Of a stretch of 64,000 nucleotides of DNA, positions 19,401-22,400 are shown in pieces (position 1 is the first letter of the stretch; every line of letters begins with the position of its first letter). The DNA is taken from NCBI RefSeq assembly GCF_057098645.1, contig NZ_CM169472.1. One strand, written 5' to 3'. A program made the position numbers.

Positions 19401-22400
19401 AGAAGGCGACCGACTGCATTCACGTAAATTACGAACCTTTAATGAGCCGCCGTTCCGATAATAAGTTCTGAACCTTCTTATCAAAAATAGATGTGAAGGA
19501 TTAAGTAAGACATCTGGCAAATAGCCCGCAATAAACGCGGGCTCTTTGCTTCCTTGGGCGGATACGAGTTTTATTATCGTCTTAATGATTTCCACATATT
19601 AAAAGCAAGTATGCTTTCAAAACACAATTATAAAAAATCCCACCAACAATATAAGTTTTTATAAAATTAAATATAAGATTATGACTTTAGAATATTTTTA
19701 TTTCTAATAGACGAGATTTTTCCTGTTATGATATAATATGCCGAATTAACACATGTTAACGATTTACCAGTAATGTAAATAAATTTTCGAGGAGATCATT
19801 CCAGTGGGACGTAAATGGGCCAATATTGTTGCTAAAAAAATGGCTAAAGACGGTGCAACGTCTAAAATTTATGCAAAATTCGGTGTAGAAATCTATGCTG
19901 CTGCTAAACAAGGTGAACCCGATCCAGAATTAAACACATCTTTAAAATTCGTTATTGAACGTGCAAAACAGGCACAAGTTCCAAAGCACGTTATTGATAA
20001 AGCAATTGATAAAGCTAAAGGCGGCGGAGATGAAACGTTCGTGCAGGGACGTTATGAAGGCTTTGGTCCTAATGGCTCAATGATTATCGCTGAGACATTA
20101 ACTTCAAATGTTAACCGTACGATTGCTAACGTTCGCACAATTTTCAATAAAAAAGGCGGCAATATCGGAGCGGCAGGTTCTGTCAGCTATATGTTTGACA
20201 ATACGGGTGTGATTGTATTTAAAGGAACAGACCCTGACCATATTTTTGAAATTTTACTTGAAGCTGAAGTTGATGTTCGTGATGTGACTGAAGAAGAAGG
20301 TAACATTGTTATTTATACTGAACCTACTGACCTTCATAAAGGAATCGCGGCGCTAAAAGCAGCTGGAATCACTGAGTTCTCAACAACAGAATTAGAAATG
20401 ATTGCTCAATCTGAAGTTGAGCTTTCCCCAGAAGATTTAGAAATCTTTGAAGGGCTTGTTGATGCCCTTGAAGATGACGACGATGTACAAAAAGTTTATC
20501 ATAACGTCGCAAATCTCTAATGATATTTTAAAGAAATCTGTCTTTATGGCAGATTTCTTTAATCTCATATAATTCTTATAAAAAATATAATGTTTAACTC
20601 GTCATATTGCTTATAAAAAATCCCCGTTCCCAGAGAAATAACATTTATTAAAATGGCAGGTCTTCTTTTTCTGATTACCGAAGACAAAGTGGCAATTACG
20701 TATAGTTTCCCGATAAAGACGCGACAGCTACATCCCGCATAAGGCATTTTTCTCTTTATCTTTGTACGGTACTTCATGGAACAGAATTTTTGACCCTGTG
20801 AATCGTGATGTCTGTTGGGGAGGGGCAATTTGCTCACTGAAGCGTGAGACTCGATTAAGCGCACGAAACACAGAAATCAAAAAACCCGGCCACTTTTTTT
20901 ACAAAGCGGCCGGGTAAAAATAATTTTTATTTTTTAACTGTTTTGAGACTTATAGAGATATCTCAAAACTAAAATTTGGCTCCTCTGACTGGACTCGAAC
21001 CAGTGACATACGGATTAACAGTCCGCCGTTCTACCGACTGAACTACAGAGGAATCGTGAGAACGAGGCGAATATTAGCGACGCTCATCCACAATGTCAAA
21101 GCCTGTTTTTTAAATTTGAAATCGTTTGCTGAAATAATCTGCACTTTGTCGTTTATTCCGACACAACTGGCTTTTTTTCACACTTTTGCGGCTCAGGTCG
21201 AGGATATTTCCACAGCCAACGTCCAGTAACCATTCGCCAGTAAAACAGCACGGCCCGCACAGCCCAGTCGGCAAACATTCCCATCCAGACACCAACCACA
21301 CCCCAGCCAAGCATGATTCCCAGCACATAACCGACTACAACCCGGCAACCCCACATGCTCAACATAGAAACCCACATGGCGTAACGTGCATCGCGAGCAC
21401 CCTTAAATCCAGCGGGTAGCACCCATGAGGCAGACCAAATAGGCATAAATAAAGCATTTAGCCAAATCAGAATCACAACGACATGTTTAACCTGTGGATC
21501 CTGGGTGTAAAACGATGCCATAACCCCGGCAAAGGGAGCCGTTAGCCAGGCGATGGCCGTTAATCCAAGAGTGGAAAGCCAGAACACATGCCGCAACTGA
21601 ATCTCTGCTTGCGCTATCTGTCCTACACCCAACCTTCGGCCTGTAATGATCGTAGAAGCAGAGCCGAGCGCACTTCCGGGTAAGTTGATAAGAGCCGCAA
21701 TTGAAAACGCGATAAAATTTCCGGCAATAACACTGGTCCCCATCCCGGCAACGAACATTTGGGTTAATAACCGACCACTGGTAAATAACACTGATTCGAC
21801 ACTCGCGGGAATACCAATCCCCATGACTTCCCAGATAATGCTAAAATTCAGCGGTTTAAAATAGCTCTTTAACGAAATCCTTAGCGCAGGATTAAAACCA
21901 ATCGCCAGCACCCACAAAATTGCCACTGCGCCAATATAACGAGAAATGGTTAACCCCAACCCAGCCCCGACAAATCCCAGTCCCGGCCAGGAGAAAAGGC
22001 CGTAAATCAATATGCCGCTAATAATAATATTAAGAATATTCAGGCTACCGTTAATCAGTAGCGGTATTTTCGTATTCCCTGCACCACGAAGTGCCCCGCT
22101 ACCAATCAAAGTGATGGCAGCTGCTGGATAACTGAGTACCGTCAGCTCCAGATAAGTCAACGCCAGTGCTTTAACTTCTGTCGTGGCATCACCCGCGACG
22201 AAATCAATAATTTGCTCGCCAAAATGATGAATAAGCGTTGCCAACAGTACGGCAAACAACGTCATGATCACCAATGACTGCCGCGTCGCCACCCTCGCTC
22301 GTCGTCGATCCCGCTTACCGAGACTAAATGCCACAACGACAGTAGTACCAAGATCGATAGCAGCAAAAAAGCCATAATGACCATATTGAAGCTGTCCGCC

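Follow-up and report, generated by a model that had tools for sequence, protein, structure and literature searches.

A one-base deletion in a T7 run has very probably made yeeO an inherited pseudogene in an Escherichia coli lineage with the O145 O-antigen cluster

The yeeO gene of Escherichia coli K-12 (b1985) and the protein WP_001323172.1 represent a MATE-family transporter for the efflux of FMN, FAD, and toxic metabolites. Export of FMN and FAD by YeeO has been reported (McAnulty and Wood 2014, as cited in PMC6092379), and a ΔyeeO derivative of BW25113 is viable (PMC6092379). In other complete genomes, yeeO is broken by IS1 (AHM9C68I and others) or by IS5 (CE0021a). Because the deletion derivative is viable and such insertions occur elsewhere, we count YeeO as dispensable. 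The gene is annotated as "frameshifted" by NCBI PGAP in strain LR-46 (AP027537) and in the clonal pair 1504D004/1604D011 (CP149565, CP149553). A shift of reading frame can also be part of normal expression, as at the programmed −1 sites of dnaX (A_AAA_AAG) and of IS3-family transposases, which have a heptamer of the form X_XXY_YYZ. The correction of an indel by frameshifting or slippage, termed a "savior" event, is likewise a described phenomenon (PMC5009743).

We analyzed yeeO in a 64,000-nt stretch of contig NZ_CM169472.1 (assembly GCF_057098645.1), referred to below as the window. The gene lies at the same chromosomal locus as in K-12, in the order yeeN, tRNA-Asn, yeeO (minus strand), tRNA-Asn (plus strand), cbl (22913-23863), nac (23965-24912), and a third tRNA-Asn (25209-25284). 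The tRNA-Asn genes on the downstream (20977-21052, minus strand; ARAGORN and the RefSeq annotation of relatives) and upstream (22800-22875, plus strand; ARAGORN) flanks of yeeO are inverted copies of each other, identical at 85 of 85 positions, which could in principle permit inversion of the yeeO segment. The window cbl is intact (316 aa), unlike that of the close relative C325, which is a frameshifted pseudogene owing to a 1-bp deletion (C325 locus 24915-25864; window position 22953).

The region 40000-64000 contains the his operon, gnd, and the O-antigen cluster, and is essentially identical to O145:H28 genomes. The whole window is contained in none of the complete RefSeq genomes. Some mobile or variable segments were also found. 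An IS3-family element of 1,310 bp (8132-9441), identical to copies in relatives that are annotated with a programmed frameshift, interrupts a large gene for a yeeJ-like inverse autotransporter/Ig-like adhesin, in a position and orientation unlike those in RM9872. The segment 30031-33391 does not align to RM9872, which has approximately 15.7 kb of IS66 and island DNA at this site, including dynamin-like, GTPase, and yeeS/cbtA-type genes; the island content beside cobU varies among close relatives.

Two overlapping minus-strand ORFs were called at the yeeO locus. The N-terminal ORF (22268..22792) encodes 174 aa from a TTG start and matches profile positions 1-46 of the first Pfam MatE domain. 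The C-terminal ORF (21153..22334) encodes 393 aa from a GTG start, continues yeeO in the unshifted frame (residues ~103-495), and matches profile positions 57-159 together with the second domain. The proposal in the initial annotation that the two ORFs jointly encode one complete MATE transporter was confirmed. With the intact yeeO annotations of CP025903 and CP028379 as references, the gene was mapped from the RefSeq ATG (22639) to the original stop codon (21153-21155) on the minus strand, with 1,487 nt (21153..22639) instead of 1,488.

Global alignment with strain 300709 and O145 strain RM9872, both of which encode the intact 495-aa YeeO (WP_001323172.1), revealed a single indel, a run of seven A in the references that is a run of six at 22365..22370 in the window (T6 on the coding strand). 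The same 1-bp deletion is the one indel that separates the window yeeO from four near-identical genomes, all with A7. In comparison with the intact O145 allele, the nucleotide sequence differs by this indel and one upstream SNP. At codons 90-92, GCT TTT TTT has become GCT TTT TTG, so that ATG GCT TTT TTT GCT GCT ATC reads ATG GCT TTT TTG CTG CTA TCG, and codon 91 of 495 is the last to be read in the native frame. With one T inserted, the gene again encodes 495 aa identical to WP_001323172.1; this protein scores 909.6 bits against NCBIfam NF007562 (the EmmdR/YeeO equivalog; cut-off 465) and 233.9 bits against TIGR00797 (cut-off 147.4), and contains two Pfam MatE stretches. The comparison with related alleles, which had been suggested at the outset, therefore bears out that a 1-bp change in the A run splits the gene. 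The frame switch itself had been placed within the ORF overlap at 22268-22334; this location did not hold, as the lesion lies in the run, which in gene orientation is upstream of the overlap and 31-36 nt away from it. Within the overlap, both frames simply happen to remain open after the shift.

From the RefSeq ATG, the shifted frame (22268..22639, minus strand; stop codon 22268-22270) encodes a product of 123 aa, in which 91 native residues (MWFH...VIMAF) are followed by a 32-residue out-of-frame tail (LLLSILVLLSLWHLVSVSGIDDERGWRRGSHW). Its Pfam MatE match is limited to residues 48-93, and judging by sequence it retains approximately two of the twelve hydrophobic helices. No uninterrupted frame covers all 12 helices in the window; the frame that begins at the yeeO start covers profile positions 1-46. 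Independent translation of the downstream 393-aa ORF as a functional protein was rejected, given that no Shine-Dalgarno-like sequence precedes its candidate starts and that the first helices would be missing; the ORF tool lists this frame solely because a GTG happens to occur there. The window yeeO is thus predicted to be a null allele, and the lineage is predicted to be devoid of YeeO-mediated export of FMN, FAD, and toxic metabolites.

Since the frameshift peptide would not otherwise exist, looking up its exact sequence in a collection of 15 billion proteins served as a probe for independent carriers of A6. The 174-aa form also spans a SNP, located 50 nt before the yeeO ATG at position 22689, where the window has G and all compared relatives have A (S35 instead of F35); this SNP is linked to A6 and marks the lineage. 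Two NCBI drafts encode the 174-aa form (GCA_029357705.1 and GCA_015672185.1), as does a 1,797-nt contig that recurs unchanged in 19 sequencing-run samples. Aligned with the window over 19,834, 10,989, and 1,797 nt, respectively, these sequences differ by 2, 1, and 0 SNPs and have no indels. Both drafts and the 1,797-nt contig carry A6, 22689G, and every SNP that separates the window from RM9872, C325, and Z1323HEC0422, and the 1-2 SNPs by which the two drafts differ from the window identify them as separate assemblies. Short-read contigs of approximately 1.8 kb contain yeeO alone because the tRNA-Asn inverted repeats bracket the gene, and the contigs of these assemblies do break at the repeats, which suggests that they derive from short reads. 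An intact long-form YeeO with the S35 marker is absent from the 15-billion-protein collection, in which the F35 control is present on 23 contigs; the search has limited power, given that the marker falls outside the shorter, 495-aa form adopted in most gene calls. Every sampled member of the lineage carries A6, which is thus an inherited and apparently fixed trait of a lineage that has been sampled more than 20 times.

The same lesion is already known in other public genomes, where it is annotated as a pseudogene. A 1,751-nt query of the locus had matches in 5,418 of the 5,426 complete RefSeq E. coli genomes, with the best uninterrupted matches spanning 1,752 nt, and A7 is present in approximately 5,270 complete genomes. 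A 40-nt A6-specific query, designed so that no 28-nt seed could match without crossing the run, replaced the SNP-confounded identity bands of a 66-nt query and detected A6 in three of the 5,426, namely LR-46 and the clonal pair 1504D004/1604D011. These strains have the same change from A7 to A6 at the same run as the window, but their yeeO backgrounds differ from that of the window by 27-33 SNPs in ~1.9 kb, and for this reason we regard their deletions as independent events. LR-46 has a second 1-bp deletion in yeeO, equivalent to window position 22159, which reflects either further decay of the pseudogene or a poorer assembly.

Public assemblies in the protein collection extend this picture. 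The exact 123-aa product is found on 124 contigs, and its 90% cluster comprises 111 distinct sequences, nearly all of which, among those read, share the tail MAFL(L/Q)LSILV...GSHW. At least seven yeeO allele groups with A6 can be distinguished when the window is considered along with ten sampled contigs and the two other complete-genome alleles. The BLAST low-complexity filter probably masks a run of A8 length, so a +1 change was sought through its predicted product; none was present for the N-terminal sequence that yields the −1 product of those 124 contigs. Some of the public recurrence must be read with care. A second 7-nt run in the last codons of yeeO (21172-21178; T7 on the plus strand), intact in the window, has also lost one base in five of the ten sampled A6 contigs, including pairs that are otherwise identical or 2 SNPs apart, and part of the A6 recurrence elsewhere may consequently be due to artefacts or mutator strains. 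With the −1 change at 21172-21178, the C-terminal ORF is called at 384 instead of 370 aa, which probably accounts for the 509-aa form of YeeO. Given the independent base losses in other lineages, we take the T7 run in yeeO to be a minor mutational hotspot, modestly prone to base loss, in a gene that tolerates inactivation. The suggestion that the run is slippage-prone stands in so far as the same −1 change occurs on at least seven allele backgrounds; it is qualified by the rarity of the change (3 of 5,426) and by its single direction.

The recurrence of the −1 event on at least seven allele backgrounds also raises the question of whether the run acts as a phase-variable contingency switch that slips between A7 and A6 and thereby turns YeeO reversibly on and off in a population. 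The run does lie inside the coding region, and its length sets the frame (T7/T6 at codons 90-92). However, at 7 nt it is short, 99.9% of the complete genomes have A7 with A6 in three of 5,426, and no +1 product was found for the N-terminal sequence examined. Frequent two-way variation in length was observed neither among relatives nor within the lineage. All sampled lineage members have A6, and the marker was not encountered on any intact allele. Ordinary slippage combined with weak selection suffices to explain the recurrent loss of a dispensable gene, and we consider a contingency switch highly unlikely.

A related question is whether the T6 allele still gives full-length YeeO, with the gene simply down-regulated, by a ribosomal −1 shift on U_UUU_UUG or by RNA polymerase adding a U. 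The deletion did create a heptamer of the form X_XXY_YYZ in the zero frame at codons 90-92 (GC U_UUU_UUG CUG), and a −1 shift on it, as read from the sequence, re-enters the native YeeO frame (...MAF(L/F)AAIDL...). The window site thus shares its form and frame with the programmed sites of dnaX and the IS3-family transposases, and the savior corrections described in PMC5009743 offer a precedent. In contrast to those programmed sites, the window heptamer is a recent mutation, is not conserved, is of a weak type in E. coli, and has neither a downstream structure nor an upstream Shine-Dalgarno stimulator. A systematic survey in E. coli found that U-type heptamers shift efficiently as H_HH.U_UU.Y, and that ZZN codons that mix purines and pyrimidines, such as UUG, are poorer shifters (PMC4066793). 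U_UU.U_UU.G is missing from the motifs selected in that survey on the basis of frameshifting above 0.10% without stimulators and a negative z-score. The 94 nt downstream of the heptamer fold no better than shuffled sequences (minimum free energy −27.9 kcal/mol against a shuffle mean of −28.7; z = +0.26), and no GGAGG- or AGGA-like sequence occurs within 20 nt upstream. Neither the heptamer survey nor the folding of the downstream RNA thus gave anything in support of a recoding rescue. Furthermore, the two-frame state is rare and derived, with the plain in-frame gene being ancestral and present in all but three of the 5,426 complete genomes. A 6-nt run would also be too short for appreciable slippage by E. 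coli RNA polymerase, which argues against the transcriptional route as well.

On this evidence, we find a down-regulated but functional yeeO scarcely credible and would expect any recoding rescue not to exceed background. A very low amount of full-length YeeO may possibly arise from slippage on the U6 run. A variant of this idea, to which we give a very slim chance, treats the −1 allele of the T7 run as a tolerated "leaky-off" state, in which slippage by the ribosome or RNA polymerase yields a trickle of full-length transporter. If true, it would explain the occurrence of −1 alleles without +1 alleles across many E. coli backgrounds.

The remaining alternative is that the strain truly has A7 and an intact yeeO, and that base-calling or polishing dropped an A. 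A 7-nt homopolymer that appears one base short is a classic type of sequencing error, the genome of the window is not among the RefSeq complete set, and several public A6 contigs have other homopolymer deletions nearby. In addition, the window differs from RM9872 in the length of two further A runs. Over approximately 60 kb, the comparison with RM9872 gave 17 SNPs; the only indels were 1-bp length differences in three A runs, namely A8 to A7 at 2515, the yeeO lesion (22364 in this alignment), and A7 to A8 at 40829. The window contains 26 homopolymers of at least 7 nt and 68 of 6 nt; within the part aligned to RM9872, all 63 6-nt runs and 20 other runs of at least 7 nt are unchanged.

The two other variants can be described individually. 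The run within 2513-2522 has A7 in the window and in the complete genomes Z1323HEC0422 and Z1323HEC0399 and A8 in O145:H28 RM9872, and because the variant at 2515 is common to these two complete genomes, it is regarded as a sub-lineage polymorphism. This run comes after the start codon of a hypothetical gene (139 aa) located immediately downstream of vgrG/tssI in a type VI secretion cluster; the ATG frame now ends after 10 codons, and Z1323HEC0422 and Z1323HEC0399 have no annotated gene there. The A8 at 40829-40836 corresponds to the U-tract of an intrinsic terminator predicted for plaP. It is A7 in RM9872 and the other compared O145-type genomes, and A8 also in TB06051 and in the unrelated yeeO-A6 strains 1504D004/1604D011.

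With one of the two additional A-run differences shared by a sub-lineage, the other located in a terminator U-tract, and the remaining runs in agreement with RM9872, the window does not have the profile of an error-prone assembly. Systematic homopolymer errors were accordingly rejected, as the ~60 kb compared with RM9872, C325, and Z1323HEC0422 gave just these three A-run differences. A technical artefact common to the window and 1504D004, which share both A6 and the intergenic A8, was also dropped, since the 49.5-kb region of 1504D004 contains no other frameshifted gene and has few indels relative to the window. Most importantly, two NCBI assemblies that are independent of the window and 19 run samples share A6 in linkage with the lineage SNPs. 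A sequencing error, which the initial annotation had kept as one of its three options, is thereby effectively refuted for the window and appears extremely improbable to us, and its option of a pseudogene in this strain is substantiated by an allele that is inherited and common to these assemblies and samples.

We therefore favor, with high confidence, the explanation that a genuine, vertically inherited 1-bp deletion in the T7 run made yeeO a pseudogene in an E. coli lineage with the O145 O-antigen cluster. Replication strand slippage at GCT-TTT-TTT would have removed one T. Translation would then go out of frame within the second predicted transmembrane helix, once residue 91 has been incorporated, and add 32 wrong residues before the stop codon. 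The resulting 123-aa product is predicted to be unable to form a 12-helix MATE transporter, with the probable loss of FMN, FAD, and toxic-metabolite export by YeeO. The lesion was presumably tolerated and then fixed in the lineage because YeeO is dispensable, and the same run probably lost a base independently in other lineages. Compared with K-12 yeeO and WP_001323172.1, the window gene lacks one T at codons 90-92 and is split, with a product of 123 aa; repaired, its protein is identical to that of the intact O145 allele (495 aa). The alleles disrupted by IS1 or IS5 represent loss of the same dispensable gene by another mechanism, IS insertion instead of homopolymer slippage.

The yeeO lesion is an instance of ordinary genome decay. 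Its correct annotation is a frameshifted pseudogene, and the two ORFs should not be listed as separate MATE proteins. The combination of A6 and 22689G is usable as a lineage marker. The recurrent −1 change in unrelated strains provides a small, clean case of a homopolymer hotspot in a dispensable gene, and the comparison illustrates that independent assemblies can tell real homopolymer frameshifts from sequencing artefacts.
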